The position numbers and the translations under genes are program-made. Below, piece after piece: positions 2,563-24,352 of a stretch of DNA of 64,000 nucleotides (its first letter is position 1; every line of letters starts with the position of its first letter). The stretch comes from an uncultured virus (IMG/VR IMGVR_UViG_3300041809_001460). Its lineage: Duplodnaviria > Heunggongvirae > Uroviricota > Caudoviricetes. The notes below the pieces were generated by a model. It saw only the letters and a list, made by a program, of their open reading frames with translations, had not been told where the DNA came from and did no database searches. The stretch is from IMG/VR virus record IMGVR_UViG_3300041809_001460; one strand, given 5' to 3'.

Positions 2563-5500
2563 ATGGTCGCCTTCCTGCGCAGGCTGCATCTGGCATTGCA
2601 CGCCCGTTTTCTCCGCTACTTTCGCACTCGCGAGGTGGTGAAGGCCTATTCCCTGATGCACGCCGAAGAGATGGCCATCACGCCGATCCAGAACTGGCCG
2701 ATGATGAAAGCCAGGCAGGCTCAAGAGATCAGGCAGGTGAAGGCTGGAAAGCTGGACATTGTAGACCGCAAGAGCTGGGCGTTCCCCTATCTGCCTTCGA
2801 GCGTGCAACGGCTGTCGATGCCGGTGATGAAGTCAACCCCTTACAATCTGCGCCGTTTCTCACGCACGCCAGTCGCCCGGCGCGCCATCAACCTGATCAA
2901 GAACTCAGTGACCGCACAAACCTGGGACATTAGACCAATCGACGGTGCGGCGGTCGAGGATGAGGACGAGCAGAAGGCGCGGATAAAAATCGCCAAGGGT
3001 CTTTTCAAGCATCCCAATAACGTAGACTCGATGCAGTCTTGGATGGAGATGGGCATCGAGGACCTTTGCTGCTTCGGCGCCTTCGCTTCTGAGATTATGC
3101 TGACCATCGATCCTGAGCGGCCGGTGAAGATGTGGGCGATGGATGTGTCTACGGTCCGCATCTTCGTATCCTGGTCTGAGTCCACTACCGATCTGCCGCA
3201 CTACGCACAGATGACCGGACTACAGGGCGAGCGTGGAGCGATCCTGTTCTACGACGATGAGATCATGTACATCAAGGACAACCCCGCCACCGACAATCCT
3301 TTCGGCCTGGGCAAGATGGAAGTGGCCTTCCAGCAGCTGAACGATTTGCTGGGTGTGCAGAGAATGGCTGGAATGGCTGGAGCGGATCAAGTCCACAAGT
3401 GCTTCCCCGGAGACACCGAGGTATTGACGCGGCGCGGATGGATGGCTTGGCGTGATGTGGGAGACGATGAGGAATTCGCCACACGCAGCTCGGATGGCAA
3501 GCTGCAGTGGCAGCGCGCTCTCGGATTTGTGCGCGAACAGCACGACGGAGACATGATCCAGTTCCGCAACCGGGAACTGACCATTACCGTCACACCGAAT
3601 CATAGGATGTATGGGCAGCGCTTCACTAAGGACTGGAAAACGGGGAAGCGTGTGGCCGAGCCTATCGGATTCATTGAAGCGCGTGAGCTGTTTGATGGCG
3701 TCGCAAACCGCCCGGGTAAGGGATGGAGAGGAGCGGACAAGAAGGAACGGTCGCTCTTCGACTTCAGGATTCCGACAAGGGCTACGTGGGAAGACGGCGT
3801 TTTGCCGGAGCCTGTCTGCCGTGTCGGGACAAAGACATTCGACTGGGAGGATTGGGCGGCGTTTCTTGGCGTCTGGATTGCCGAGGGTTCGTGCATGAAG
3901 GCGAGCGGAGAGAAGCCGAACAACGGAGAGTACCGCATACAGGTTGCGCAGTCGAAAAAGGCCAACCCGTCAAAATACGAGAAGATCAAGCACCTTCTAG
4001 GGCGCATGGGTTTTGCACACCAAGCAAAATCCGACCGCTTTGTTTTCAGTGACCACGATGTTTGGGCATATCTGTCCGGTCTGGGAGACAGTCATACCAA
4101 ATTCGTTCCTCAGTGGATAAAGGATGCCCCCACGCCCATTATCCAGGCGTTCTTTGACTGGGCTATGCTGGGCGACGGAACTGTCCGTGGGAAGAAGCGG
4201 ACGTACTATACAGCCAGCGCGCGTCTAGCTGGCGATATGCAGGAGCTGTTTCAAAAGATAGGCTCCAGCGCTGCGGTCAAACCTTATCTCGACGGGCGCA
4301 GTCAGATGTACGCTGTCGAGGAGATGCTGCGACCTGAGTTGAGCATTATCCCTGCCGGTTGCCGAGGCAAGGCGCGCACGCCGAAGCGGATTCCGTATAG
4401 CGGCATGGTTTATTGCGCGATGGTTCCGAATGGGACGCTCTATTGCCGTGAAAATGGATACGCGTTCTTCACAGGCAACACATGGCTATGGTGGGAGCAG
4501 CCGCAAAGTGATTCGGCGTACCAGATCGTGCGCCGGCACATTCAGAACGAACTCGAGGGACAGGCCAAGGTTTCGATCATCGGCGGCATGAAGAAGCCGG
4601 AAGTCCTCGAGATCACCCCTGTCACCGAAGAGGACCTGCTGCTCAACTGGCAGGAGATGATGATTCGCATGGTAGCCAACGCCTTCGACATGACCGCGAT
4701 GGCGCTGGGAGTCGAGCATGATGTGAACCGGGCCGTCGGCGAAGTGCTCAAGGACCAGGACTTCAGATCGGCTGTGGTGCCGATGGCCAAGAGAGTGCAG
4801 GAAGCATTCACGCGTAAGGTTCTGCATGAGGCGCTGGGCTGGCGTGACCTCGAATTCGCGTTTCTGCAACTCGACGACCCCGACCTCGAAACCAAAACCG
4901 ACATGAATGCGCGGATGTACTCGGCCAATGCCCTGACCCCGAATGAGTGGAGGATCAGTGTGGGCAAACAGCCATTGAAGAGCCCGTTTGGCGACATGAC
5001 CCAGTTCGAGTCCATGATGCTTAACCAGGAGCTGATGGCTGAGATTCAGAACCGGCAGCAAGAGCAGAGCATGAACCGCCAACAGCAACAGCAGCTGCCG
5101 GGAAGTGGCGGAGGGTATCCGCCAGGTGGTGGCGGCCAGCCCTACCAGAAACCGATTTCGCAGGGCGAGATTTCACGCGGCGGGCAGATCGAGTCGCCAC
5201 GGCCGCTGATGCTGCCTAAGTTCCCCATCGCCGGTTCCAAGTGGAATGCGAGGGAGATTGCGAGAATGCCGGTCAACGATTTGGCCGACCGGATCGATGG
5301 CGGAGAACTGCCGCCAGCGAAGAGCCTGCTTCTGGACATGGACGATCAGGAACCAAACATCCTCGAGCAGATGGCCGACGAGGTGAAGGAATACTTCAAG
5401 TACGTGCTGCAGGAAGACGAGCAGGACGATGCTGATGAGACACCGGACCAGTATTTGCAGAGCTGGCTGAAGAAGCAGCGCAAGCGTGTGAACAAGAGGA

Positions 5501-5649
5501 AGGCCCGTTCCGACGACATGACCCAGTATTTGCAGGACGTGAACCAGAGGTGGCGTATGGCGACGCCGTCGAAGCCTGGAGCCAAGGCTTATCGGGCTGT
5601 GAAGAATCCAGGCAAGCCGGGCACGCCGCCCGCGGCACGTTCTTTGTAA
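2563..5649 (+). CDS. Phage portal protein interrupted by an intein, with a long Q/G-rich and charged C-terminal extension
   Basis: Portal-like features (HPNNVDS, EIMYIKDNP...PFGLGKME, LTPNEWR...G.QPL); first gene of the head module; intein at aa ~280-639. Confidence 0.85.
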   Translation: MVAFLRRLHLALHARFLRYFRTREVVKAYSLMHAEEMAITPIQNWPMMKARQAQEIRQVKAGKLDIVDRKSWAFPYLPSSVQRLSMPVMKSTPYNLRRFSRTPVARRAINLIKNSVTAQTWDIRPIDGAAVEDEDEQKARIKIAKGLFKHPNNVDSMQSWMEMGIEDLCCFGAFASEIMLTIDPERPVKMWAMDVSTVRIFVSWSESTTDLPHYAQMTGLQGERGAILFYDDEIMYIKDNPATDNPFGLGKMEVAFQQLNDLLGVQRMAGMAGADQVHKCFPGDTEVLTRRGWMAWRDVGDDEEFATRSSDGKLQWQRALGFVREQHDGDMIQFRNRELTITVTPNHRMYGQRFTKDWKTGKRVAEPIGFIEARELFDGVANRPGKGWRGADKKERSLFDFRIPTRATWEDGVLPEPVCRVGTKTFDWEDWAAFLGVWIAEGSCMKASGEKPNNGEYRIQVAQSKKANPSKYEKIKHLLGRMGFAHQAKSDRFVFSDHDVWAYLSGLGDSHTKFVPQWIKDAPTPIIQAFFDWAMLGDGTVRGKKRTYYTASARLAGDMQELFQKIGSSAAVKPYLDGRSQMYAVEEMLRPELSIIPAGCRGKARTPKRIPYSGMVYCAMVPNGTLYCRENGYAFFTGNTWLWWEQPQSDSAYQIVRRHIQNELEGQAKVSIIGGMKKPEVLEITPVTEEDLLLNWQEMMIRMVANAFDMTAMALGVEHDVNRAVGEVLKDQDFRSAVVPMAKRVQEAFTRKVLHEALGWRDLEFAFLQLDDPDLETKTDMNARMYSANALTPNEWRISVGKQPLKSPFGDMTQFESMMLNQELMAEIQNRQQEQSMNRQQQQQLPGSGGGYPPGGGGQPYQKPISQGEISRGGQIESPRPLMLPKFPIAGSKWNAREIARMPVNDLADRIDGGELPPAKSLLLDMDDQEPNILEQMADEVKEYFKYVLQEDEQDDADETPDQYLQSWLKKQRKRVNKRKARSDDMTQYLQDVNQRWRMATPSKPGAKAYRAVKNPGKPGTPPAARSL
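3400..4479 (+). mobile_element. Intein (360 aa) with LAGLIDADG-type homing endonuclease, in the portal gene
   Basis: N-term CFPGDTEVLTRRGW; block B VTPNHRMY; LAGLIDADG-like FLGVWIAEGS and AMLGDGT; C-term YSGMVYCAMVPNGTLYCRENG...TGN followed by +1 Thr. Confidence 0.9.
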
Positions 5650-10522: not shown

Positions 10523-11962
10523 ATGAGTCGCGGACTACAGCTTGTTGAGGCTTCGCTTAAAGCCGTTGAGGCTGGCGCTGGCCATCCCAACAAGATGCGC
10601 GTTCGCGGAATGCTTGTGCAGCTGGACACCCCCAGCAATAAGCCACCCAACGGCGCCCAGGGGCATCGCATTTTGGTGCCGATGGAAGTCGCCAAGCGAC
10701 GCCTGAAGACTTTGGTGGGGATGGGCCTGAACTACTCGCCCGACCTCGATGCGCACGCCCAGCGGCGTAAGGTGGGCGTGATCGACAAGGCCTGGATCGC
10801 GGGCAACGAATTGATGATCGAGGGTCATGTTTGGAAGCACGACTTCCCCGAGGCTGAGAAGGACCTGAAGCAGTCCGGGCTGGGCATGAGCATGGAGCTG
10901 GGAGAGGTTCGGGTAGACAACCCCAACGCCGATGTTTGGACCCTGGATGACTTTCAATTTTTAGGGGCAACTATCTTGTGGCGGAAATCCGCGGCCTACA
11001 ACAACACGCGGGCGATTGCGGCGCGAGCCGAGCAAAGGAGAGGAAGCATGTCGAAGACGGTGAATAAGACGGGGAAAGCGTCTCGCGAGCAAGGTGAGCG
11101 TGTGGCGCAGATCGCCGCCGAAGCTGCCGCTGGTGCTGTGCGTAAGGGCACCTCGAAGATTCTGGCGGTCCTCGAAACGCAGACGAATGCGCTGGCGGAA
11201 ATCACCGCCCAGCAAGAGGAGTTCGATAGCCGTCTTTCGGCGATCGAAACCGGAACCACCCACCTCAGCGCTGATGCCGACGATGATGTGAGCGCAGCCG
11301 GCAAGAAGGCGTCGAGCAGCACCACCACCTCCTCATCGACAGCGAGCGAGGATGGAGGCTGGAGCGCGGCTGAGGACGACGCTGCGGCGGCTGCCAAAGC
11401 CTCCAGCAGCACCACTTCCTCATCGACGGCAAGCGAGGATGTAGGCGCCGAGGGCGTGGACAAGGGCGACCTCGACGAGGAAGACACCGACCTTGGGCAG
11501 AAAGCTGGCCACGCCAACGAGGACGCAGAGAACCGCGGCAGCGATGGCGCCGAGGACGTTGTGAAGAAGGTCGGCTCTACCGTGTCGAGTGCGCGGATGC
11601 GGGCGCTGAAGACTGCTAACAAGCAGCTACAGCGGCAGCTTGCAGCCAGCCAGCAACAGATCGCGAAGCTGGAGCACAAGCTGGGCCACAAGATCGAGAA
11701 GCTGCAGGCGCAGGTGACCGACGCTGCTCAGAGAATGAGCCGCAGGTCGCTCTCACCTGAGATCACGGCGATGATGGCCAAGGCCAACATCGATCCGGTT
11801 GACATGTTCCGCTCCGGCAGCAAGCTGAGTGTGGCTGAGGTGGACGGTGTTATCAGCTCCAGCGGCATTCCCATGAATCCGGTGGACCGGGTCGCCTGGA
11901 AACAGGCTTTTCTCCACGCTGGTCTGATGGACGAGGGCCGTGTGGAGCGTAGCCCCCGCTAG
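10523..11962 (+). CDS. Prohead protease / scaffold fusion
   Basis: Directly upstream of the capsid gene; protease-like N-terminal domain (DAH...KVGVIDKAWI...GMSMEL...FLGATIL), then acidic low-complexity and coiled-coil region. Confidence 0.7.
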   Translation: MSRGLQLVEASLKAVEAGAGHPNKMRVRGMLVQLDTPSNKPPNGAQGHRILVPMEVAKRRLKTLVGMGLNYSPDLDAHAQRRKVGVIDKAWIAGNELMIEGHVWKHDFPEAEKDLKQSGLGMSMELGEVRVDNPNADVWTLDDFQFLGATILWRKSAAYNNTRAIAARAEQRRGSMSKTVNKTGKASREQGERVAQIAAEAAAGAVRKGTSKILAVLETQTNALAEITAQQEEFDSRLSAIETGTTHLSADADDDVSAAGKKASSSTTTSSSTASEDGGWSAAEDDAAAAAKASSSTTSSSTASEDVGAEGVDKGDLDEEDTDLGQKAGHANEDAENRGSDGAEDVVKKVGSTVSSARMRALKTANKQLQRQLAASQQQIAKLEHKLGHKIEKLQAQVTDAAQRMSRRSLSPEITAMMAKANIDPVDMFRSGSKLSVAEVDGVISSSGIPMNPVDRVAWKQAFLHAGLMDEGRVERSPR

Positions 11963-11998
11963 TAGGTTGGCGGACATCAACAGGAAGGAGACTTGAAT

Positions 11999-13057
11999 AT
12001 GAAAGGCGTTGCGCAATTTGTTGATCCGTCAAACAGCCCAGTTCTGACCGCGATTATGGCGGCGGGAAGGGGCCGGAGTGCCGAAGGTGTAGGCAATATC
12101 TCGGCTGCGGCGGATTACCTGGCTCCCGGCGCGATTGAAGTGAATCGGTACGCGACGGAAATCGTGGACATGGTGCGGAGGCGTTTCGTGCTCGGCCAAC
12201 GCATCAACCAGACGCTGGCAACCGGCCAGCCTCACCGCTACTTCGAGCAGATTGCAATTCCGTCTGCTGTGCCGGCGAACCCGCGGGCTTTGACCACCAC
12301 CGCATCTCAACCCGTAAGGCAAGAGCGCGTGGTTGGCCTCAAGGCCATCACCGCGCAGATCAACTACGGGCTGTTCGATGTGGAGATCAACCAGCAGCAG
12401 GGCCAATTCGCCTACCTCGAGGCGAAGGACCTCACCGACACCGTGGACGGCGTGCTCAAGCTGCACGACTCGACGTTGTGGACCGGTAACGACACCGATC
12501 TGTTTATCGCTACCAGCACCCAGTATTACGGCATCAGCGGCCAGATTTTGGCTGGCGCTGCCTCTTCGCTGGGACTTGGAGCGGTGTCGATCCCGGCCAG
12601 CGGTTCGCTGGTGGATGGATACAAGACCGCGGTGGCTGCGATGGCCAATCGGCAGGACTTTGAAGTACGGCCGACCGCCATCTACGGCAACCCCACGCTG
12701 CTCAACCTGTTCGACCAGGAAGTTTACGACAACAACCGCCAGCTGTTCTACAACCAGACAGAGGTGCTGCCGGGCGTCGTAGTGAATGGACTGCCGACGC
12801 AGGTGGGCATTCTGCCTCTGGTAAGCGACTCAGCTCTGGTGAACATCAGCGCTGGCGGCGGCAAGAACCAGTACACCGGGTTCATTCTCTCCGATGTGGA
12901 CATGATCAAGTATGCGTACTTGACCGACCCGCTGCCGAGAGTCTTCCAACTCGGGTTGCTGGGCAACCTCAGCTCGCAGTACGTGGTGGTGAAGTTCGGT
13001 GCCCCGTTTGTCGAGGGACCGGGCTACGCGCACCAGGCTGTGCTGACCATCCGGTAA
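11999..13057 (+). CDS. Major capsid protein (HK97-fold)
   Basis: Strong AGGAAGGAG RBS, 352 aa, follows the protease/scaffold and is followed by a terminator; LWTGND...YYGI and PTAIYGNP segments. Confidence 0.8.
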   Translation: MKGVAQFVDPSNSPVLTAIMAAGRGRSAEGVGNISAAADYLAPGAIEVNRYATEIVDMVRRRFVLGQRINQTLATGQPHRYFEQIAIPSAVPANPRALTTTASQPVRQERVVGLKAITAQINYGLFDVEINQQQGQFAYLEAKDLTDTVDGVLKLHDSTLWTGNDTDLFIATSTQYYGISGQILAGAASSLGLGAVSIPASGSLVDGYKTAVAAMANRQDFEVRPTAIYGNPTLLNLFDQEVYDNNRQLFYNQTEVLPGVVVNGLPTQVGILPLVSDSALVNISAGGGKNQYTGFILSDVDMIKYAYLTDPLPRVFQLGLLGNLSSQYVVVKFGAPFVEGPGYAHQAVLTIR

Positions 13058-13674: not shown

Positions 13675-13718
13675 AGCTTGCTGTTGGCCTAGGAGCGACC
13701 AAGGGGCAATCTATGGGT
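13675..13718 (+). promoter_or_regulatory. Putative late promoter, copy 3 (polyprotein; leaderless)
   Basis: AGCTTGCTGTTG at 13675, GGGG-CAATCT, in-frame ATG at +44 (13719). Confidence 0.75.
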
Positions 13719-16700
13719 ATGGCCCTATCCTCGAGCGCCGCGGCCTCCCTACGGTCAAACCCGTTCGACCTTGAGCTGCTCCAAGCGCAGGTTGCGGCTG
13801 ATCTGGAAGCCTTTGATCCTGATGAGGAACGTGATCCTCACGGCCGCTGGGTTCGTGGGATGCCCGAGCAGGGCGAGCTGTTCGAGAAATACCAGCAAAA
13901 GCAGTCGGACCGTATTGCGCAGGTGCTAAAGCGGGCTGCCGCCGACAAGAGAGTAGCCCAGGCCGCGCAGGAAGCTGCTACGAGGGGTGACGCCCGCAAT
14001 GATCCTGGTGTGACCACAGACGGACAGCACTACACTCCGCAGACCGACGACTTCAACAAGAGAGTGGCTGAAAGCTTTCTCGATCCCAAAGCCAAAGTGC
14101 CGGAGGGCAAGCAGCCGATCGCTGTGTTCATGCTGGGTAAGCCTGGAGCCGGTAAGAGTGCGATGATGGGGTCGTTGCGGGACAAGCTGCCGCCGATGGT
14201 GAACATCAACGCTGACGATGTGATGGACAAGCTGCCTGGGTACAAGGGGACCTTGGCCCAGGCCTATCATGAGTGGGGGTGCGACGTAGCGCGCCACTAT
14301 CTCACGCCTGAGGCTTTGACCGGACACTACAACGTCAACTTTGATATGACCGACAATGTGTCTCGGCTGGAGCGGACCGCGCAAGAGTGCAAGCTGATGG
14401 GGTATCGGATTGTGGTGCTGCACGCGGATGTAGACACCGCGACCTCGGTCGAAAGAGCCTACAATAGATTTGTTGTCAAAGGGCGCTACGTTCCGCTTGA
14501 TGTGGTCAAGAGCTACGGCGAGCGGCCGAAGCAAGCCTACGACCACATCAAGGCCAGCGGCATCGCTGATGAATGGAGGGAGTATGACACAACCGACGCA
14601 GGACTCGGACGAGCACGTGGCGGAGCGCCAGTCAGAGCAAGACTTGTCGAATCCGGCTACCGCACCCCTGGGCCGGTACTCATCGGAGCCGAGCGAAGCC
14701 TGGGCACAGGCGCTGGAAGAGGGCGTTCACACCGCCTATCTCGACTGGCGCAAGAAACATCCCGAGCAAAAGTAGCGCTGCTGCAGGCTGCCAACGAGCT
14801 TGGAGTGCTGGCCTACAGCGACGACGAGGCTCGTGATGCTCATGGGGAATGGACTCGAGGCGATAGCGTAGAGGATTCCTATCAGGTGCTTGGGGAGCTG
14901 GGGAAGCGTGGGAAGAGCGCCGCGCTTATAACCGGCACCGGCAAGATTGGGATTGGAGATTCGCATCCTCATGTCGCCAATTCGCTGGGATACGGGGATA
15001 AGAATGACCCATTTGGCGTGGACTGGGACCGCTTTTACGCTGATGGCGGCGTGCTTGTTCGGTATCGGCCATACAACGTGGACGTGAGTTTTGGAAGCCC
15101 CAACGAGGAAGACATGGATCGGGTGCGGAGCATCCTCGATGCCGTGCCTAATTCCGATGGAAATCACTACACGATGGACTACTTTCAGCCTGGAGCGGAC
15201 GGTAGATTCGCTATGGGCGATAAGCAGAACGTACTGCGGGCGATGAACCGCTGGCAGCGTGGGCTTGCTGGAGCGGGTGTGCAAGCCTACTCCGAAGACG
15301 AAGAGCGCGACGATCACGGCCGCTGGACCTCCGGCATGGACGCGAATCTGAAAGCGCTGTCCCGGACCGCTAAGGGCGAAGAGAGGCATTCAGACCGCCC
15401 CGGCCTGGCGAAGTCCGGGCAGGAGTTGGCCGACAAAGCCACCGACAATTTCCATAAAGCTGCCGAGTGGGTGTGGCAGAACCGCGAACTCGAGATGGAC
15501 CGCAGCAATCTCCCCTACATCGTGACCAAGATCGGCGACATGGTGAATGAGGGGCTGCTGAAGCCCGGCCAGAGCTTATGGCGCAATTATGAAGACCCCA
15601 AGCTGCACTACCCACCGGCCTCTGAGATCAAGGGTCTGATGCAGAACTTCTATTCCGAGCTGGCCCACCGGATCAAGTCTGGAGACGATCCTAAGGGCAT
15701 CGCCGCCTGGGCCGAGCACGAGTTCAACGTGAAGATTCACCCGTTTTCGGATGGCATGGGCCGGGCTACGCAGCTGCTCAGCGGCATGATCCTGTTGCAG
15801 AAGGGGCATGACCTGCCGAAGTACGAAGGCCGCGACAGCTTCTACAAAAACATGACCGGGCCTGATTGGGAGAAATACTACCGCGGCCTGTTCGGGGTCG
15901 AAGCATATAGCCCCGATGAAGAGCGTGATTCTCACGGTGAATGGACGAGTGGCGGGATTGTTTATCACGGCACCAGCTCTGCTGCTTTGAAGCAGATCGC
16001 CAAAGAAGGACTGATCCCAGGTAAAGGACAAGGCGGCGACGCGTGGGCCAGGAAGTTTGGACGTGAAAGGGGTATGGGGTCGGCTCCAGCCGAGATGCTG
16101 GGGAGGGCCAAGAGCATATTCTTCACACGCGACCGGATCAACATGGTGAACTTTGCTGCGGCCGCGGCAGAGGTGAACAAGGGATCGCTTCCTGTCATTC
16201 TTAAAGTGAACCTGCCAGCTGATGTGGCGAAGAAGATGAAGCAAGACGAGTTCAGCGGCCCCGGGAACTGGCGCTACACACATACCATTCCTGCAAAATA
16301 CATCACCGCCTACAGGCCTGCCACGAAATTTGAGGGTGGTTACTTCCCGCCTGCTGAGGGAACAACCTGGGGTAAATGGAAGAAGTTCGACCCGAGCCAA
16401 CTGGCGGCATCCGGCACCGTTACGTTCTACACCTTCATTCTTTGCCATCCCGGATTGGAAGCCTACAGTCCCGACGAAGCGCGCGACGCCCACGGCCGCT
16501 GGGGCAACAGCGGCGACGCTCCTGAGAAATGGATCGGCTTTGACCTCGACGGGACCTTGGCCCACTACGAACATTGGGAGGGACCGGGGAAGATTGGCGC
16601 GCCGCTCAAGGACACTGAAGTTTGGAAAGCGCTCGAGGATCACCTGGCTGCTGGAGATCATGTCAAGATTATGACCGCTCGCGTGGCCCACGATCCCGGC

Positions 16701-18890
16701 GGCGTGGAGCGCAAAGCTATTCAGGCCTGGTGCAAGAAGCGCATCGGCCGCGTCCTGCCGATCACCAGCGTAAAGGACCAGGGGCTGACCAAGCTGTACG
16801 ACGACCGCGCCGTGGCTGTGGCCAAGAACAGCGGCAAGCTGCTGAACGATCCGACGAAGATCAAAGCCAGGGCTGTAGAAAAGACTGGATGCGTCGCCTG
16901 CGAGCGTGGCGATTGCGAAATGCACGGATACAGCCCTGATGAAGAGCGAAATGCTCACGGTGAGTGGAGCCAAGGGGGCGACGAAGAAAAAGACCTGACA
17001 CCGCAGCAGACCGAGCAGGAGATGCTGAATCTTTATCACGGCACCGCCTCCGACGCGCTGCGTTCGATTGCCAGAGAAGGGCTGGTTCCGGGTAAGGGAC
17101 AGGGAGGAGATGCAGCGGCGATTGCTGCTGGACTGCACGGGATTGCTGTGCATTCGCTGATAGCGCGCCCGAAAAGCACTTATTTTACGACTTCAGAAAG
17201 GGACGCCAAGTTTTTCGCTATGATCGCCGCTGCTGTCAACCCTGGATCGAAGCCCGTGGTATTGCAGGTGCGCGTGCCCCGCGCGCTAGCCGACACGTTC
17301 AAGGCTGACGAGCTGAACAAGCTGGACGGGGTAGCGCTGCGTGATGAAAAGCCGCTCCCTCCCAAATACATCGCCGCTTATCAGACGCCGCCGATGGAAT
17401 GGACGCCCAGCGGTTCCAGCATAGAACAGATTGTGAACCGCTGGAACAGTTCCTGGAAGAGATTCAGCCCAAGCGTGTTTGCTGCTGCCGATGGCTACGT
17501 GACCTATTACAGCTTCATCCTGCATCATCCCGGCGACGTGGAGGCTTACTCTGACGACGAGGAGCGGGATGAGCGTGGGCGCTGGGTGAAGGTCGGCTCC
17601 GAGCTTTTTGTTTCGCCTAACACCGGCGAATCGACCTTGGACGAGGCACTGAGCGAGATGAACAGCGACCGGCAGAAGAGCTTCATTGGACTGAGCAATC
17701 GTGTGGTGGGAGCCGTTGCCCGTTCCAGCGCTGTTCATTCTGCGATCGGCGTCTGGGCTGACGGCGCTGAGACCTCAGCTAGCATTGACCTGCCGAAGAG
17801 TGTTGACGCCGACACCAGCCGCTACATCGGCGCGCTGCTGGCCAAGGCCGCTGCGCAGAAGGCCTATCTGAATTTCGTGCGCGATCCACAGGGCAGCAAC
17901 CTACTTTACGAGTGCAAGACTGGTGACGATCTGGGTACTATAAACAAGAAGCTGACCGCTGCTGGGATTGGTTTTCATACCATGATCCCTGGTGGGGGTG
18001 GAACCGAAGTCCGGGTGTTCGATGCCGACGGCTCCCAGGCTGCAAAGATGGAGTCCTTCGCCAAGGACAACGATCTGCATGTCGAGGTCAGCCGCGGCAC
18101 CGGAACCTTTGTGGGGAGTGAAGAAAGCCGTGAAGAAGGAGCTAACGAGTATGACCAAATCATCCAGCGGTACGAGCGAGAACACCCCGACAAAGCCTAT
18201 CGAGATTCCCTCCAGTTTCGAGGATGTGACGAGCAAGGGCGGAACCGTGGTGATTGTGGGAGGAGTGCCTACGCCCAAGAAGAAATCTTCACCCTCGATC
18301 TAGGAGCGTTAGAGGAGCGCATTCACGCCGCCATTTCGACTGCTGAAGTGGTGAGGCGCATCCGTGGTCTTAGGACCGTCCCCGAACCCAAAGGCAAGTG
18401 GTCTACGATGCGGCGGGCCAAGCAGCGCCGCTACAACACCGCGTCCGTGTGGAAAGAGAATCCCATGACCCGCATCGACAAGCCTGCCGATGCTGAGGCC
18501 TTCAAGCGCCTGCCGGTCAAGATACGCGATCACATTGTTGACACCGCGCCGCTGCGGACCTTCAACCCGAAAGACCTCAAGAGCAATCAGCCTGCTGTGT
18601 ATCAGGCCGACCTCGAGCACTTTGCTCATCACGGCCACGATCCTGAGCCTGTGATTGTTCTGAAGACGCGAGTTGGGTTGTACGTTCACAACGGCAATCA
18701 CCGCGCGACCGTAGCCATGCTCTCGGGCCGCCGCATCAAAGCCAGGTATGTCGATCTCAGCAAGGTCAAGGAAATTCAGGCTATGATCCCAATAATTGAC
18801 GGTATGCTGGAGGCGAGGAACATCTTCGCGCCCGAGGAATCGGCTGGGCGCAGGTTGTCATTGGCGGTGAATCTGGCGGTGGAGCAATGA
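13719..18890 (+). CDS. Polyvalent multi-effector polyprotein: zeta-like P-loop kinase, unknown, Fic, ART/Tpt1-like x2, HAD-like, unknown and ParB-like modules separated by a repeated leader
   Basis: GKPGAGKS+INADD; HPFSDGMGR; YHGT...EGL.P twice; WIGFDLDGTLA; NGNHRA; seven copies of the xxAYSxDExRDxHGxW leader. Confidence 0.85.
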   Translation: MALSSSAAASLRSNPFDLELLQAQVAADLEAFDPDEERDPHGRWVRGMPEQGELFEKYQQKQSDRIAQVLKRAAADKRVAQAAQEAATRGDARNDPGVTTDGQHYTPQTDDFNKRVAESFLDPKAKVPEGKQPIAVFMLGKPGAGKSAMMGSLRDKLPPMVNINADDVMDKLPGYKGTLAQAYHEWGCDVARHYLTPEALTGHYNVNFDMTDNVSRLERTAQECKLMGYRIVVLHADVDTATSVERAYNRFVVKGRYVPLDVVKSYGERPKQAYDHIKASGIADEWREYDTTDAGLGRARGGAPVRARLVESGYRTPGPVLIGAERSLGTGAGRGRSHRLSRLAQETSRAKVALLQAANELGVLAYSDDEARDAHGEWTRGDSVEDSYQVLGELGKRGKSAALITGTGKIGIGDSHPHVANSLGYGDKNDPFGVDWDRFYADGGVLVRYRPYNVDVSFGSPNEEDMDRVRSILDAVPNSDGNHYTMDYFQPGADGRFAMGDKQNVLRAMNRWQRGLAGAGVQAYSEDEERDDHGRWTSGMDANLKALSRTAKGEERHSDRPGLAKSGQELADKATDNFHKAAEWVWQNRELEMDRSNLPYIVTKIGDMVNEGLLKPGQSLWRNYEDPKLHYPPASEIKGLMQNFYSELAHRIKSGDDPKGIAAWAEHEFNVKIHPFSDGMGRATQLLSGMILLQKGHDLPKYEGRDSFYKNMTGPDWEKYYRGLFGVEAYSPDEERDSHGEWTSGGIVYHGTSSAALKQIAKEGLIPGKGQGGDAWARKFGRERGMGSAPAEMLGRAKSIFFTRDRINMVNFAAAAAEVNKGSLPVILKVNLPADVAKKMKQDEFSGPGNWRYTHTIPAKYITAYRPATKFEGGYFPPAEGTTWGKWKKFDPSQLAASGTVTFYTFILCHPGLEAYSPDEARDAHGRWGNSGDAPEKWIGFDLDGTLAHYEHWEGPGKIGAPLKDTEVWKALEDHLAAGDHVKIMTARVAHDPGGVERKAIQAWCKKRIGRVLPITSVKDQGLTKLYDDRAVAVAKNSGKLLNDPTKIKARAVEKTGCVACERGDCEMHGYSPDEERNAHGEWSQGGDEEKDLTPQQTEQEMLNLYHGTASDALRSIAREGLVPGKGQGGDAAAIAAGLHGIAVHSLIARPKSTYFTTSERDAKFFAMIAAAVNPGSKPVVLQVRVPRALADTFKADELNKLDGVALRDEKPLPPKYIAAYQTPPMEWTPSGSSIEQIVNRWNSSWKRFSPSVFAAADGYVTYYSFILHHPGDVEAYSDDEERDERGRWVKVGSELFVSPNTGESTLDEALSEMNSDRQKSFIGLSNRVVGAVARSSAVHSAIGVWADGAETSASIDLPKSVDADTSRYIGALLAKAAAQKAYLNFVRDPQGSNLLYECKTGDDLGTINKKLTAAGIGFHTMIPGGGGTEVRVFDADGSQAAKMESFAKDNDLHVEVSRGTGTFVGSEESREEGANEYDQIIQRYEREHPDKAYRDSLQFRGCDEQGRNRGDCGRSAYAQEEIFTLDLGALEERIHAAISTAEVVRRIRGLRTVPEPKGKWSTMRRAKQRRYNTASVWKENPMTRIDKPADAEAFKRLPVKIRDHIVDTAPLRTFNPKDLKSNQPAVYQADLEHFAHHGHDPEPVIVLKTRVGLYVHNGNHRATVAMLSGRRIKARYVDLSKVKEIQAMIPIIDGMLEARNIFAPEESAGRRLSLAVNLAVEQ

Positions 18891-19000
18891 GTCTTGCTGC
18901 GATGGTAGAGGGTCTGGCACGGGACGCTGTCGAGGCCGCGCTGCGTGCGATCGAGGCTTGGAACGAGCAGGACCACCCGCGTGATGATCACGGCCGCTTC
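13803..19000 (+). repeat. Dispersed peptide-level repeat (8 copies) of the module leader
   Basis: Copies begin at ~13803, 14805, 15279, 15897, 16455, 16920 and 17538, plus 18950 in the next gene (IEAWNEQDHPRDDHGRF). Confidence 0.9.
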
Positions 19001-22000
19001 ACCGACAAGGGCGGAGTGCCTGCTAGGCACACACCCGCTGGACATGCTGCCAAGCTGGCCAATGCCGGGTATCGCCTGTATCACGCTGGAGTCGGCCCGT
19101 CTGATGCCGACGAATGGCATTACCACGGCAAACTGAACGGCGACGGTGTTCTTGTGAGGCCTTACGGCCATGGCGGCGCCAAGTACGCGCATCAGGTGAA
19201 GCTGCAGGGAGTGGATAAGGACGGCAACACCTTCTACAAAGGCCACCAGATCAACCAGCTGCTGCAGGAAAACGCTAAGCGGCATCCACCTGAGCCTGGC
19301 GTCGCCCCACCAAAGCCCGTGGTGCCGCGGGGAGCCCAACCGGCCAAGGCCGCGCCAGCGAAAGCGGCCCCTGCCGTACAGCAGATGCTGCTTCCGGGGC
19401 AGCAGCAGAAGATCGATAACGTTGTGAGCCCGGCCGTGCAGCAAAAACTTGCTGCTGCCGGGTTTACAGCCGTGAGGGTGAACCAAGATGGAAAAGCTGT
19501 ATTCAACCAGGGTGATGTGCAGCTGCAGATCGGAAAGGGGGATGACGGCAAGCCGAACTATCAGATTTTGCAGAGTGGAAAGGCTTTGGGGGGTGCGGTG
19601 GCTCATCGACCCTTCGATGCTCAAGGCAATCTGCGGCCAGACATTGCCTGGGCCGTCAACAAAGGAGCAGCCAACTTTGGACTGCCGGTGAAGAAAGGCG
19701 CCGCACCGCCGAATGGACTGGTATACGGCAACTCGGCCAAAGCCCTGGCCACCGCTGGATTCATTTATCGAGGAGTAGCTACGGCGTCGGATGGCTCCCG
19801 CCGCGCCTGCTATGAGACGCCGGACAAATCCGCGCAGATGTATGTAGGGAAATATGTCGGGTACAACTTGTTTGTGAACGGAAAGCAGGTGAATTCCGGT
19901 GGCCAGCTTTACGACATCAATCACAACGGTGAGCCCTATCTGAAACAGGATATTCGCGAGGCGGCTGGACTGCCTAAGCCTAAATTTGATGTGGACCCGC
20001 AGCAAGTGTACCAGAGCCTCATCAGCAAAGACGATCGCAGCGCCCTGGATCGAGCTGGATTTACGGTGAAGGACGTGAAGTTCAACGAAGGCGGCGACCC
20101 CACCCTCGTTCTGAGCAAGGGCGATGTACAGATACGGAGGGCAGCCGGGAAAGACTTGAAAGTATTCCAGAATGGTATAGAGGTCAACGCGCCTGGGTGG
20201 CGCGGGTGGAGATTTCGAGACCAGTGGGGGAACCTGGACAAGCCATTGCGGGACTTGATTGGGATGCCCGATCCCGATCTGAAAATTCCTACCCATCTTC
20301 CTTCATCGGATAAGACGTCGCCGCCTGTTAATTTAGTTGGTGATGAGGGAAACAGACTGCTGACCGGACGTGGTGGTTTTACTTATGTGGGAGTGGGGCG
20401 CGACAGCCAAGGCGGCCAATATGCGAAGTATCAGAACGCTAACGGCGTGACGCTGCGGGTCAACGATGCTGGTAAGACCATCGCCGTGGATAAGAACGGC
20501 AATAAATTAGGAGAGTGGACCGGCGTTCCGTTTGAACGCAACAACAACGGCCAGAGATACCTGCTGCCCGACTTTCGCCAGGCCGTAGGCATTCCTGATA
20601 GGCCCTACAACGGCGCCAACGCCGAGCAAGACTACAAAAGAGCAACAAGCGCCGTTCAACGCGACGCCCTGGCCAAAGCTGGCTTTGTACTTGATGGCGC
20701 GAAGTACAACGAGAAGGAAGAGCCGGTTGTTGTACTGCGCCGGCCCGACGGCGCTGAGATGCAGATCAACAGCGCCGGATACCAGCTCAAGCCTAAGGGA
20801 CAGCAGGCAGCGAATCCTGTGCAGCCGATGTATCAGTTGATGGACAAGTTCGGTTTTTTGAACCAAAACATTCGACAGACTCTTGGGCTGCCTCAGCCGG
20901 ATTTGAGGCTGCCGGTGACCAACCCCGACAAGGACACACGACCAGACTCGCGGCTTGTGAGTCGCAGCGCCGACGAAGCCTTTCAAAAAGCTGGTTTTGT
21001 TTATATGGGCAACGGCCGCGACAAGGACGGCAACGACTTTGCTCAATATATTCATCCAGCTGGAGCTATTCTGCGGAAGCAGGATGGAGGAGACTTCTAC
21101 ATCACCCCGCCTGGCGGTAAGGAAGTGGCGCTGAACGATGACCATCCTTATGAGCGCGACTCGAACCGGCAGGCAAAGTTGAAGATGACGGTGCGTGAGG
21201 CTGCTGGACTGCCGACCTGGTGGTTGTCGGCTCCGCCATCCAAGACTCCGCCTGTGCCACAAGCCACGCCACAGCGGCCGATTCCAAGCCCCAGCATCCA
21301 GCCTGATCTGCCTATGACGCTGCCGCCGCACGACGAGATGAATGCTATTGAAAGAGAACTGGCGCAGGGAAAATCGTCGGGCAGCAGCCGCATGGGCGGA
21401 GGCGTGAACGAGACTGTTAAGGTGCAGCTCGAGAACGGCATGAAGTGCGTTTTTAAGCCCAACGACGGTGAGGACAAATTCTGCGCTGGTGGCTGGAACA
21501 TCGAGGTGAAAGCCGGAGCCCAGGCCATGAGAGAGGTAGCCGCGTATCAGGTAGCGAAGCTGGTGGGGATGAAGGACCTCGTGCCACCGACCGTCTACCG
21601 CAACCAGAACGGCAAGATGGGGATCATTCACCCCTTTGCTGAGGGAGAAACGGCCGGAAACGTCGGAGAGGCAAAGCGTTACGACGGCGACCGGGATTGT
21701 GCCCGCTGCGCCGCCTTTGATTACGTGATTGCCGATGGCGACCGCCACAACGGCAACTGGATTTGCCAAGGAGACGGCCCTAAGATTCAGCTGATCGATC
21801 ATGGGATGTGTTTTCCCAACGGCGACAAGATGCAAAATGTAAGGGGATTTTTAGTGAAGATGAAAAATGACAAGGACGACATCAACGGTCTACGGCCGAG
21901 GGACATGGCGGCACCGTTTGTGGATAAGAAAAACGAGATCATCGGCAAAATGTCAAAGCTGGGATTCAGCAAGGAAGCTATTCATGGAGTAGCGGCGCGG

Positions 22001-22048
22001 ATCGATGACCTTGCTACCGCTAGGAAGTGGGAAGATTTGAAGTATTGA
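18887..22048 (+). CDS. Repeat-containing protein with C-terminal PI3/PI4-kinase-like (HipA-like) kinase domain
   Basis: ~7 imperfect ~100-aa repeats (LxxAGF...RxxxGLP); kinase motifs GGGVN, VFKP, REVAAY, DRHNGN, LIDHG. Confidence 0.8.
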   Translation: MSLAAMVEGLARDAVEAALRAIEAWNEQDHPRDDHGRFTDKGGVPARHTPAGHAAKLANAGYRLYHAGVGPSDADEWHYHGKLNGDGVLVRPYGHGGAKYAHQVKLQGVDKDGNTFYKGHQINQLLQENAKRHPPEPGVAPPKPVVPRGAQPAKAAPAKAAPAVQQMLLPGQQQKIDNVVSPAVQQKLAAAGFTAVRVNQDGKAVFNQGDVQLQIGKGDDGKPNYQILQSGKALGGAVAHRPFDAQGNLRPDIAWAVNKGAANFGLPVKKGAAPPNGLVYGNSAKALATAGFIYRGVATASDGSRRACYETPDKSAQMYVGKYVGYNLFVNGKQVNSGGQLYDINHNGEPYLKQDIREAAGLPKPKFDVDPQQVYQSLISKDDRSALDRAGFTVKDVKFNEGGDPTLVLSKGDVQIRRAAGKDLKVFQNGIEVNAPGWRGWRFRDQWGNLDKPLRDLIGMPDPDLKIPTHLPSSDKTSPPVNLVGDEGNRLLTGRGGFTYVGVGRDSQGGQYAKYQNANGVTLRVNDAGKTIAVDKNGNKLGEWTGVPFERNNNGQRYLLPDFRQAVGIPDRPYNGANAEQDYKRATSAVQRDALAKAGFVLDGAKYNEKEEPVVVLRRPDGAEMQINSAGYQLKPKGQQAANPVQPMYQLMDKFGFLNQNIRQTLGLPQPDLRLPVTNPDKDTRPDSRLVSRSADEAFQKAGFVYMGNGRDKDGNDFAQYIHPAGAILRKQDGGDFYITPPGGKEVALNDDHPYERDSNRQAKLKMTVREAAGLPTWWLSAPPSKTPPVPQATPQRPIPSPSIQPDLPMTLPPHDEMNAIERELAQGKSSGSSRMGGGVNETVKVQLENGMKCVFKPNDGEDKFCAGGWNIEVKAGAQAMREVAAYQVAKLVGMKDLVPPTVYRNQNGKMGIIHPFAEGETAGNVGEAKRYDGDRDCARCAAFDYVIADGDRHNGNWICQGDGPKIQLIDHGMCFPNGDKMQNVRGFLVKMKNDKDDINGLRPRDMAAPFVDKKNEIIGKMSKLGFSKEAIHGVAARIDDLATARKWEDLKY

Positions 22049-22055
22049 GGTGGGT

Positions 22056-23051
22056 ATGGACCTGAGCTGCACCTTTTTAGAGACAACCGACAAAGGGCAG
22101 AGACCTGTATTTAAGATTCTGTCGCGTGACGGGATTATCACAGGCCGGCTGATCAATCCCCGCTCCGCTATGATGATGGACGCGGTTTTGGCTGATGATC
22201 CGCTGCGTATCGGGAGCATGGCTTTTCCGAAGTCGAATCCCGAGGCCTATATGCGGGCTCTTCCGCACGCCTACAGCGGCGAGCGTCTGCGGGCGCAACT
22301 ACAGGACGCGCGAGGGAAAGATATACAAGCTGTGTCGCCTCCGGGCTGGCGTGGCACGACCGAACACATGAAGGACCATCCCGAGATAACCAATCCCTAT
22401 GCGCTGGCCTGGTCGATGTATAAGAAAGGCGACAGCTCGCATAAGGCCGAGCCACCGGATACGCCGCGGGTGAAGGTGTCAAAGAAGACGAAGAAGGCGA
22501 GGCAGAAGGCGCTCGAGGAGAAGGATGTGAAGACCGCTGCTGATGGTTTTGGACCGGGAGAGATCGCGCGGAACGTGATCCGCGAAAAGGCTCTTGGCGT
22601 GGAATCGAAAGCCTACAAGCTGGCTGGATACACCAGCTTTCAGGGGCTGCCGATCAGCATCGAGAACCGAAAGGGAGATATTCGTAAGGGCCTCGATCAC
22701 GACGGCACACCCTGGTCCGTGAAGATGCCATGCGACTACGGCTATATCAAAGGCACCCAGGGCAGCGATGGCGATGAGGTGGACTGCTTCATCGGGCCAC
22801 TCAAGAACGCCAAGTTTGCCTACATCTTTCACATCGAGAACGACGCCGACCATACTTACGATGAGGACAAGTGTTTTCTGGGATTTTCATCGGACGAAGC
22901 GGCGCGCAAAATCTTCAATCTGGCCTACGACAACGCCGGCGAGATATTCCATTCCGTGACCATGCTGCCTATGCACGAGTTCATTGAGAAGGTTTTGCAT
23001 ACCCACGATTTGAAGAGACCGGGTAAGATACATGCGGAGGTGAAGGCATGA
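22056..23051 (+). CDS. Multi-domain protein with C-terminal inorganic pyrophosphatase-like (InPase) domain
   Basis: FQGLPISIENRKG...DYGYIKGT.G.DGDEVDCFIGP...DEDKCFLGF. Confidence 0.75.
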   Translation: MDLSCTFLETTDKGQRPVFKILSRDGIITGRLINPRSAMMMDAVLADDPLRIGSMAFPKSNPEAYMRALPHAYSGERLRAQLQDARGKDIQAVSPPGWRGTTEHMKDHPEITNPYALAWSMYKKGDSSHKAEPPDTPRVKVSKKTKKARQKALEEKDVKTAADGFGPGEIARNVIREKALGVESKAYKLAGYTSFQGLPISIENRKGDIRKGLDHDGTPWSVKMPCDYGYIKGTQGSDGDEVDCFIGPLKNAKFAYIFHIENDADHTYDEDKCFLGFSSDEAARKIFNLAYDNAGEIFHSVTMLPMHEFIEKVLHTHDLKRPGKIHAEVKA

Positions 23052-23872: not shown

Positions 23873-24352
23873 ATGGGCTATGGCGGAATAAATATCGGTT
23901 ATGGAATTCAGCGTCTCATCGACGCGCAGATGCGCTATCTCGATGCGAACCGGGTTCCGGTATCCATGCGCTTTCGAGACTTTGTGCCACCCACAGATCA
24001 GCTGTATGCGCAGCTGGGATACGTGATTACGCCCGACAGCGGCGGAGCTGGGACGACCGACGTGCTGATCAACCCGCCCTGCAGCACGCGGCTGGTTTCG
24101 ATGCACAATATCGGCATGTCGCAGGGCAAACTGCGCTTCGGAGCTAGGGAATTTACCATCTCGCAGAGCTTTATAAACGCTCAGCAGCTTGCTCTTGGCT
24201 TGGCGACGCCGGAGCAGTTATGGTTGAGCAAGCAATTGGTAGGGCTTGTGGGCTATGGGGTTTTGTGGAGCATTGAGCTGTACGCCTCCGATGATGTGGG
24301 GGGTATTCCCGTAGTCTGGACTGTTACGGCAAACGCGAACGAGTTGAGGTGA
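23873..24352 (+). CDS. Probable head-closure (stopper) protein
   Basis: Synteny after the adaptor; 159 aa, beta-rich. Confidence 0.5.
   Translation: MGYGGINIGYGIQRLIDAQMRYLDANRVPVSMRFRDFVPPTDQLYAQLGYVITPDSGGAGTTDVLINPPCSTRLVSMHNIGMSQGKLRFGAREFTISQSFINAQQLALGLATPEQLWLSKQLVGLVGYGVLWSIELYASDDVGGIPVVWTVTANANELR

Follow-up and report, generated by a model that had tools for sequence, protein, structure and literature searches.

Within a 64,000-nucleotide (nt) stretch of DNA from an uncultured tailed virus (IMG/VR record IMGVR_UViG_3300041809_001460; the whole stretch is called the window below), we analyzed an open reading frame (ORF) that encodes a polyprotein of unrelated, enzyme-like modules set off from one another by copies of a short leader. 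The leader has two parts, a variable anchor and, behind it, a widespread core. The anchor varies with the class of prohead protease found at the same locus, and the core recurs with several of these classes. Taken together, our comparisons indicate that the polyprotein is probably head cargo, processed by the prohead protease into products that each retain a docking tag at the N terminus. The polyprotein, its leaders, and the protease gene of the window are as follows.

13713..18890, plus strand: predicted cargo polyprotein, a 33-residue N-terminal propeptide and eight modules (1725 amino acids [aa]; second ATG at 13719)
13803..13850, plus strand: leader 1 (LEA and core)
14805..14852, plus strand: leader 2 (VLA and core)
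15279..15326, plus strand: leader 3 (VQA and core)
15897..15944, plus strand: leader 4 (VEA and core)
16455..16502, plus strand: leader 5 (LEA and core)
16920..16967, plus strand: leader 6 (MHG and core; the sole G site, the homologous junction in the related locus L002 being IHA)
17538..17585, plus strand: leader 7 (VEA and core; a short hairpin in the AF2 model, with bridge residues 16 and 22 and pLDDT 75-88)
10523..11962, plus strand: predicted prohead protease-scaffold protein (assemblin fold at aa ~21-167; H78 and S123 invariant; conserved I-A-A right after the domain)

A sequence-only reading of the window had placed seven copies of the pattern [VLM]x[AG]-[YF][SD]xDExR[DN]xxG[RE]W in this ORF, and all seven are present where it had placed them, each with a [VLM] residue at its first position. 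The aromatic residues of the cores are aa 34, 368, 526, 732, 918, 1073, and 1279 of the polyprotein (codons at nt 13812, 14814, 15288, 15906, 16464, 16929, and 17547, with the [VLM] residue 9 nt upstream), and the residues before the core match [VLM]x[AG] in 7/7 copies. The eighth copy that had been reported, IEA-WNEQDHPRDDHGRF at 18950-19000, does open the next ORF (18887-22048). A core-profile scan of all six frames of the window found no copies besides these eight, and at least one leader copy appeared in 0 of 20000 shuffled polyproteins. DNA identity among the 39-nt cores is 54-85%, with synonymous differences in 100 of the 174 codon pairs that encode the same residue; the conserved thing is thus the peptide. 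The polyprotein falls into a 90% cluster with four members of 1725 aa.

The anchor is nearly constant within a protein and follows the protease. Among 113 proteins with at least three leaders, consistency of the -1/-2 residue was 0.97, compared with 0.71 (maximum 0.75) after shuffling, and the anchor was fully uniform in 98 of them versus 22 when shuffled; the residues upstream of the core showed no conservation beyond P3-P1. The first 50 records, which were picked by size and leader number, comprised 9 with Peptidase_S78, 6 with S78_2, 13 with DUF2213 (5 strong and 8 weak matches), 4 with a protease of the window's own type, and 18 with none. Leaders were anchored by K or R in 19/20 cases beside S78 and 15/17 beside S78_2, by D in 10/10 beside strong DUF2213, and by [ILVM]xA in 14/17 beside the window's own family. 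By record, the anchor fitted the protease class in 24/24 cases against a permutation mean of 12.7, a count for which the rules were set after the data had been seen (post hoc) and from which the 8 weak DUF2213 records were excluded. These weak records divide into D, N, and R-x-A/L anchor types. In a tree of 13 DUF2213-like proteases, the D type stands apart from the N and R-x-A/L types; with 7/10 inner branches weak, this tree is not used as proof.

The same relation was then predicted in writing for 50 consecutive further loci, the anchors of which had been seen and the proteases of which had not (44 records, 2 repeats removed; two S78/S78_2 records lay below the family cut-off). A K/R anchor was found in 17/17 S78/S78_2 records versus 11/25 others (p 8e-5) and a D anchor in 2/2 strong DUF2213 records versus 3/40 others (p 0.012); overall, 19/19 records agreed with the prediction. 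In 64 more loci searched with local profiles, a protease was detected in 25, and the anchor agreed in 16/16 of those with an internal leader, some of which are near-duplicates. The cultured Faecalibacterium phage FP_Brigit (DUF2213 with D) and Streptomyces phage Gilgamesh (S78 with K) agree as well. The sequence-only reading had tied the leader to the protease family of the window. That part of it did not hold: the core is found alongside proteases of four classes, S78, S78_2, and DUF2213 in addition to the 10523 type, and seven loci with the 10523 protease family have no leader in the DNA fetched, which rules out a protease-specific leader.

Some loci show other arrangements. At L070, L098, and L373 (G035, G070), F or FA stands ahead of the leaders, and no protease was found among the profiles tried for the F-type leaders of L070, L098, and G070, the last a complete 54-kb record. 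At L201, L202, and L203 (G020, G026, G038), a leader or a variant of it lies together with cargo within the protease-scaffold gene, right after the catalytic domain. Gilgamesh gp48 (L205:3479-17353), an unannotated protein of 4624 aa encoded between the portal-MuF and protease genes, has one leader at aa ~32.

The 10523 product had been read as the prohead protease, and its predicted structure agrees. The model of its N-terminal domain (pLDDT 84.7) matched best, among 48161 chains, the proteases of varicella-zoster virus (Z 11.1), T4 (gp21; Z 10.7), human cytomegalovirus (Z 9.3), as well as Kaposi's sarcoma-associated herpesvirus (Z 7.3), with root-mean-square deviations (rmsd) of 2.5-3.2, and the candidate catalytic residues H78 and S123 are invariant in 113 sequences. 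No Pfam, PHROG, or NCBIfam model matched this domain, which is not a member of S78, S78_2, or DUF2213; records G002-G005 were likewise negative for proteases of these three families. Searches of PDB sequences with profiles of the protease, the capsid protein, and the seventh module (M7) of the polyprotein gave nothing meaningful. Motifs were counted by region in 104 of 120 protease homologs, those that allowed partitioning. Relative to the shuffled count, [ILVM]xA stood at 1.9-fold in the scaffold, 2.4-fold over the 15 residues that follow the domain, 1.6-fold in the N-propeptide, and 0.52-fold in the catalytic domain; three other motif spacings gave 1.0- to 1.1-fold in the scaffold. In the capsid N-arms, [ILMF]xA precedes AAD in all 11 of the sequences displayed. 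The earlier suggestion that xxA is a protease site is supported by these counts, in which [ILVM]xA behaves like the 10523 cut site, and we consider it likely that the prohead protease cleaves at the leaders. A standalone second copy of the protease domain lies far from the head genes in one relative (G003:C1:87897-88343).

A profile built from the eight core copies of the window and searched against 1.84 billion cluster representatives matched 1008 protein clusters at E<=1e-3. In the best 150 of these 1008 clusters, there were 2-10 matched stretches per protein. The median spacing from leader to leader was 246 aa, and spacing fell below 60 aa in 1/387 gaps. Pfam scans of 27 of these best 150 (ranks 2-28) gave matches in 23, and only 1/39 merged Pfam stretches met a leader, by 4 residues, where random placement gave 16.7 (minimum 6 in 20000). 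The core marks domain boundaries in these relatives. The same is seen in the polyprotein itself, where family matches fall between leaders except for a weak NCBIfam stretch at aa 740-772, which shares five residues with leader 4. The cargo of leader-bearing relatives includes MuF, Acb1, ART-PolyVal, DRAT, GNAT, 2H, zeta, and topoisomerase IB domains. The leader itself was scored by no Pfam, PHROG, or NCBIfam model in the scans of the window and its relatives, and no description of the core was found in the literature covered, outside which lay most subscription papers and the supplementary alignments of polyvalent proteins. A match to the core in the Arthrobacter phage Seahorse was not a leader.

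The modules that the leaders separate in the window are these.

13812..14813, plus strand: M1, zeta-toxin-like P-loop kinase (Pfam Zeta_toxin E 4e-17; Walker A at aa 142)
14814..15287, plus strand: M2, orphan module, exactly missing from variant P0121
15288..15905, plus strand: M3, Fic domain (Pfam Fic E 8e-5; HPFSDGMGR; PADLOC SoFic E 8e-6)
15906..16463, plus strand: M4, ART fold, weakly Tpt1/KptA-like (YHGT motif; NCBIfam E 0.001)
16464..16928, plus strand: M5, HAD-type phosphatase (PHROG 1238 and 415, E 4-6e-4; FDLDGT)
16929..17546, plus strand: M6, second ART fold, weakly Tpt1/KptA-like (NCBIfam E 5e-6; Pfam E 0.03)
17547..18329, plus strand: M7, tandem ferredoxin-like module, S-adenosylmethionine (SAM)-lyase-like
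18321..18890, plus strand: IHA site and M8, ParB-like module without a core (PHROG 1033 E 1e-3; NGNHR)

The zeta-toxin-like and Fic assignments of the sequence-only reading were upheld by Pfam, its HAD-like and ParB-like ones by the PHROG matches (E ~4e-4 and 1e-3) and motifs above, and IHA does precede the ParB-like domain at 18321. Its ART/Tpt1-like pair stands in part: M4 and M6 share 42% identity and NCBIfam scores one of them at E 5e-6, but the Tpt1/KptA Pfam scores are weak (E 0.03 and 0.33). No relatives of M2 were found, the window's own protein being the sole match among longer proteins, and the ESM Atlas held no usable match for M2 or M7.

The module behind the seventh leader, previously left as unknown, now appears SAM-lyase-like by its fold, the Pfam scores of its family members, and its invariant residues. 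The AF2 model of M7, made from 116 sequences (pLDDT 93.6), has a tandem ferredoxin-like fold. The most specific of its matches were the phage SAM lyase 6zm9 (Z 8.2) and T3 SAMase (Z 7.3), although RND efflux domains scored on a par with them (Z 8.8 and 8.3); Foldseek ranked 8bb1 18th, with probability 1.00 and rmsd 4.1. Pfam S-AdoMet_lyase scored weakly in 5/116 family members. According to the accessible text of PMC7877911, phage SAM lyases have three strictly conserved residues, Gly, Glu, and Gln; the invariant residues of M7 (G77, E84, and Q113) follow the same order with different spacing. M7 seems to resemble Svi3-3 and T3 SAMase in its ferredoxin-like fold and G/E/Q order and differs in having two ferredoxin-like units and, by pattern match, W and K at the positions of Svi3-3 Y58 and E105. 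It also appears to be virion-type cargo rather than the product of an early gene. SAM-lyase-like activity is a probable function of M7, judging from sequence and model.

Comparison of relatives shows the leader as the unit boundary for the gain, loss, and reordering of modules, in line with the plug-and-play arrangement that had been proposed. Variant P0121, known from one contig, is the window polyprotein minus exactly M2 (158 aa), and its deletion junction lies within a leader; no joint that skips M2 was found in the contigs of four public runs (21-30 of 30 bins covered; one RNA library). The module order of L002 is zeta-HAD-Fic-M7-ParB, with alignments for Fic, HAD, and M7 that begin 1-2 residues past the leader, and L001 and L003 carry different module sets. 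Among M7 homologs chosen by catalytic motif alone, a profile-detected core lies directly upstream in 58/124 untruncated cases, and M7 sits directly behind leaders with A, K, D, or F anchors. Since M7 homologs occur with and without the core, the core is not part of the M7 fold. Other short sequences are seen ahead of M7 homologs at L224, L247, L256, L263, L279, L290, L298, and L333, for example NPxHDxxGRF, HPRxxxGxxxGGEF, GGPGSG..GRP, NCGTGxGGF..C, and HEFHGNQW; these variant tags possibly belong to a wider family of post-cleavage tags. Loose ends of 255 nt were noted at window positions 14547 and 18879 in contigs of two DNA runs, and they may come from other organisms.

The core is acidic, with a mean net charge of -1.4 over 537 copies and of -1 to -4 in the window, which makes a direct DNA-binding tag unlikely. 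It opens several standalone genes, including Konstantine gp15 (MS and core), Nocardia P3.1, and some ten ORFs from environmental sequences. A ribosome-binding site accompanies several of these, and several ORFs begin with M, 0-3 residues, and the core. Judging from these native starts, the core appears to act at a free N terminus or close to one, which cleavage would create. The core is also retained on cargo already fused to the portal, the protease-scaffold, or MuF; loading of such cargo is likely assured, which favors a role after cleavage over loading alone. Patience gp18, the homolog of Konstantine gp15 and a virion protein according to the accessible text of PMC4324244, bears a different N-terminal leader, which is common to gp13, 14, 15, and 17. 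The leader of these five Patience virion proteins (L209:7977-11075) is basic and reads TPxRxAALxKAQxASA. This replacement suggests that tags such as the core and the Patience leader may be exchangeable. The sequence-only reading had put a tag on each module; seven modules of the polyprotein have one, but M8 and the ORF at 22050 do not, and these two together with the seven leaderless loci indicate that the tag is optional. We lean slightly toward the view that the core is a docking tag for the head or the ejection apparatus.

The mechanism that we propose would run as follows. The polyprotein would be expressed late, together with the portal and protease genes with which it shares an upstream DNA word of presumed promoter function, and would enter the procapsid. 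The 10523 protease would then cut after [ILVM]-x-A, a site deduced from the scaffold of this protease and from the covariation. Cleavage would yield a propeptide of 3 kDa together with eight products (17-37 kDa), seven of which would start with the same acidic 13-residue hairpin. The core at or near each free N terminus would serve, whatever the protease, as a docking tag for some component of the head or the ejection apparatus and so hold each released enzyme in the head for separate delivery. Once injected, the enzymes (kinase, Fic, ART, phosphatase, and SAM-lyase-like) may counter host defense early, as their domain families suggest.

Several observations weigh against this mechanism. No protease match (Pfam or A2) was found in 18/50 of the first records, and leaders that depart from the anchor rule number 3/17 in the window's own family (G, S, and E), 1/20 with S78, and 2/17 with S78_2. 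The records are related, and the p-values given above overstate their independence. Enrichment of the anchor residue in the scaffold of the cognate protease was seen with the D type (p 0.003) and the R-x-A/L type (p 0.008), but K and N showed none. The window's protease, capsid, and polyprotein are themselves enriched just 1.3- to 1.4-fold in [ILVM]xA, so that the regional count over the whole protease family was the informative one, and the motif is common: there are 46 sites in the polyprotein, 21 of them inside rough domain cores. Accessibility would then have to matter, as with other prohead proteases. M8 and the ORF at 22050 have no core, 66/124 M7 homologs have no profile-detected core (many have variant tags), and Pfam, PHROG, and NCBIfam scans of the polyprotein matched no MuF or portal domain.

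Other accounts of the leader were weighed against the same evidence. Cleavage could occur as proposed with the core acting only as a procapsid-loading tag and playing no part after the cut; its internal copies would be left over from tagged genes that were formerly separate and would add avidity. Standalone genes that begin with the core, and the other shared leader borne by Patience gp18, fit this account; the peptide-level conservation of all internal copies (the synonymous differences noted above) and the cores behind cargo already fused to portal, protease, or MuF do not, and we regard it as unlikely, though it is the strongest of the alternatives. An improbable account is that the core supplies the prime side of an extended protease site, read by an exosite on the assemblin fold, with no role in transport. 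Nearly all classed proteases found with the core are indeed assemblin-type (S78, S78_2, DUF2213, and the 10523 family): an S49 protease was found in 0/50 records, a Mu-like one in 0/50, by a search that matched no control either, and a ClpP-type one in 1/39, where the core stands at an apparent native start. Against an exosite are the native N-terminal cores that have no cut site, the junction of the protease itself and the capsid N-arm site, which lack the core, and the seven leaderless loci with the 10523 protease family.

The ClpS N-degron rule applies to proteins with a new N-terminal Y, F, or W, and the predicted cut would expose one of these residues in all eight copies of the window. 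The core could be a signal that the host cell recognizes once the protein has been injected, for instance an N-degron or a binding site for a host factor; yet a spacer residue precedes the aromatic residue in 90/359 K/R-type leaders and standalone copies begin MS-, MA-, or MT-, and we give this account very little credence. Equally little speaks for an intact polyvalent protein that is never processed, in which the leader would link modules structurally or act as a recombination repeat in the DNA: the M2 deletion junction within a leader and the modeling of the core as a small hairpin would suit it, but the correlation of anchor with protease class would go unexplained, and DNA identity among the cores is just 54-85%. 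Cleavage followed by docking remains our preferred reading. The original idea of the repeat as a combined protease site and packaging/ejection tag survives in its domain boundaries, protease fold, and [ILVM]xA site, but not in a core specific to the protease or in a T4-like topology, which is inverted. A broader claim, that the leader is a portable two-part cargo code across unrelated tailed phages, made of an exchangeable, protease-tuned cut site and a near-universal N-terminal ejection tag, is put forward tentatively, as something we think rather doubtful at present.

The gene order around the polyprotein is that of a tailed phage, with the portal at 2563, the head-tail adaptor at 23048, the tape measure at 29415, and replication genes beyond; the polyprotein gene lies between the protease/capsid genes and the head-tail adaptor. 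The neighboring features are as follows.

11993..13057, plus strand: probable major capsid protein (synteny; phrog_10); aa 36-41 form a conserved [ILMF]xA-AAD site
13675..13686, plus strand: shared upstream word AGCTTGCTGTTG, candidate late-promoter element
18887..22048, plus strand: second candidate cargo ORF, with a 24-aa propeptide, leader 8, repeats, and a C-terminal PI3/4K- or SCO1664-like kinase
22050..23051, plus strand: third candidate cargo ORF, with a polyvalent-type InPase and no core (Pfam InPase E 3e-35; PHROG minor head protein and DarB-like matches)

The polyprotein gene was first described as lying just downstream of the capsid gene; the capsid identity of the 11993 gene is backed only by synteny and a weak PHROG match in 1/10 homologs (E 0.0025). 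The upstream DNA element said to be common to the polyprotein, portal, and protease genes is real: AGCTTGCTGTTG occurs exactly at 2519, 10479, 13675, and 26976 and with one mismatch at 24186, which makes 5 matches against 0.38 expected. It precedes the portal, the protease, the polyprotein, and ORF 27063, and the 24186 copy sits within ORF 23873; a sigma-70 scan did no better than chance. Between leader 8 and the kinase of ORF 18887, long imperfect repeats of G-F-x-Y/L-x-G units extend over 18959-21250, a region without family matches in the scans. The portal ORF (2563-5649) contains an intein-like insertion at ~3400-4490 that starts with Cys, ends with Asn before Thr, and has a weak LAGLIDADG match. 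Long minus-strand ORFs at 15576-17153 (525 aa) and 18776-20296 (506 aa) run antisense to the cargo genes and are probably shadows of the coding strand.

To our knowledge, there are few systems (T4, P1, and giant phages) in which it is understood how a phage selects the proteins to be injected, packs them, and sets them free. Straight from sequence, the 13-residue tag, present in at least 1008 protein clusters, points out domain boundaries and enzymes that are candidates for injection. Among these are Acb1, ART, DRAT, GNAT, 2H, and topoisomerase IB, along with a SAM-lyase-like family that is common. The anchor residue in turn predicts where unassayed prohead proteases cut. If the portable code were true, any domain behind the tag would be an injected effector, the sequence would reveal protease specificities in uncharacterized families (Asp for DUF2213; for its distant clades, Asn or Arg-x-Ala/Leu; for the 10523 family, Ala), and phage heads would have a general route for protein loading. 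Cultured phages of laboratory hosts carry the tag, which makes the idea directly testable.

Known systems share parts of this arrangement. The herpesvirus assemblins are the best fold matches to the 10523 domain and are likewise fused to scaffold; the 10523 protein differs in being a phage enzyme whose predicted substrates include enzyme cargo. The hydrophobic-x-Ala cut rule proposed for the 10523 protease resembles the assemblin consensus, which is not stated in the accessible portions of PMC4498786, PMC8537868, and PMC11565193. Phage effectors fused to MuF, portal, or head-peptidase domains are predicted to be packaged in the head in the accessible text of PMC3482391 and PMC9503650, and many leader-bearing proteins are fusions of this kind; the window polyprotein is unlike them in having no MuF or portal match, and that text makes no mention of a tag. 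Polyvalent proteins (Iyer et al. 2017, PMC5512222, accessible main text) are likewise large late-gene proteins that join ART, kinase, zeta-like, ParB-like, and InPase domains and are predicted to be packaged and injected. The window polyprotein also joins unrelated conflict domains in one chain (zeta, Fic, two ART-like, HAD, SAM-lyase-like, and ParB-like) and is encoded among virion/head genes. Of the domains typical of polyvalent proteins, InPase lies in the neighboring ORF 22050 and ART-PolyVal and MuF in relatives, none having scored in the 1725-aa ORF; leader-bearing relatives share MuF, ART-PolyVal, GNAT, 2H, and Acb1 with them. Release of polyvalent proteins was proposed to occur by embedded peptidases, chiefly zincin-like metallopeptidases, whereas the joints of the window polyprotein match a separate prohead protease and no embedded peptidase was matched in it. 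A repeated leader between modules is not described in that main text (GRF, GRW, and linker are absent; the supplementary files lay outside our coverage).

Prohead proteases of SPN3US and phiKZ (gp245 and gp175) cut ejection proteins at A-X-E, so that these phages process DNA-packaged proteins at a three-residue motif, as is proposed for the window; in the accessible text of PMC10052503, the cuts remove N-terminal propeptides, and a chain of separately tagged enzymes is not described. The proposed loading and processing resemble those of the T4 internal proteins. T4 has a short leader shared by unrelated head cargo (IPI-III and Alt), and the fold of its protease gp21 matches that of the 10523 domain (Z 10.7). 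Its cut rule, L/I-X-E, is a short hydrophobic-x-P1 motif, with E at P1 where the predicted site of the window has A (PMC9026906, accessible text, here and below). The analogy to the T4 leader that had been drawn for the window is inverted, however: the T4 capsid-targeting sequence precedes the cut, is removed, and occurs once per protein, and a removable tag of this style is ruled out by topology, as the core is C-terminal to the predicted cut. The window core follows the predicted P1 residue in all eight copies and would be kept after cleavage; it is repeated within one chain and common to several protease families.

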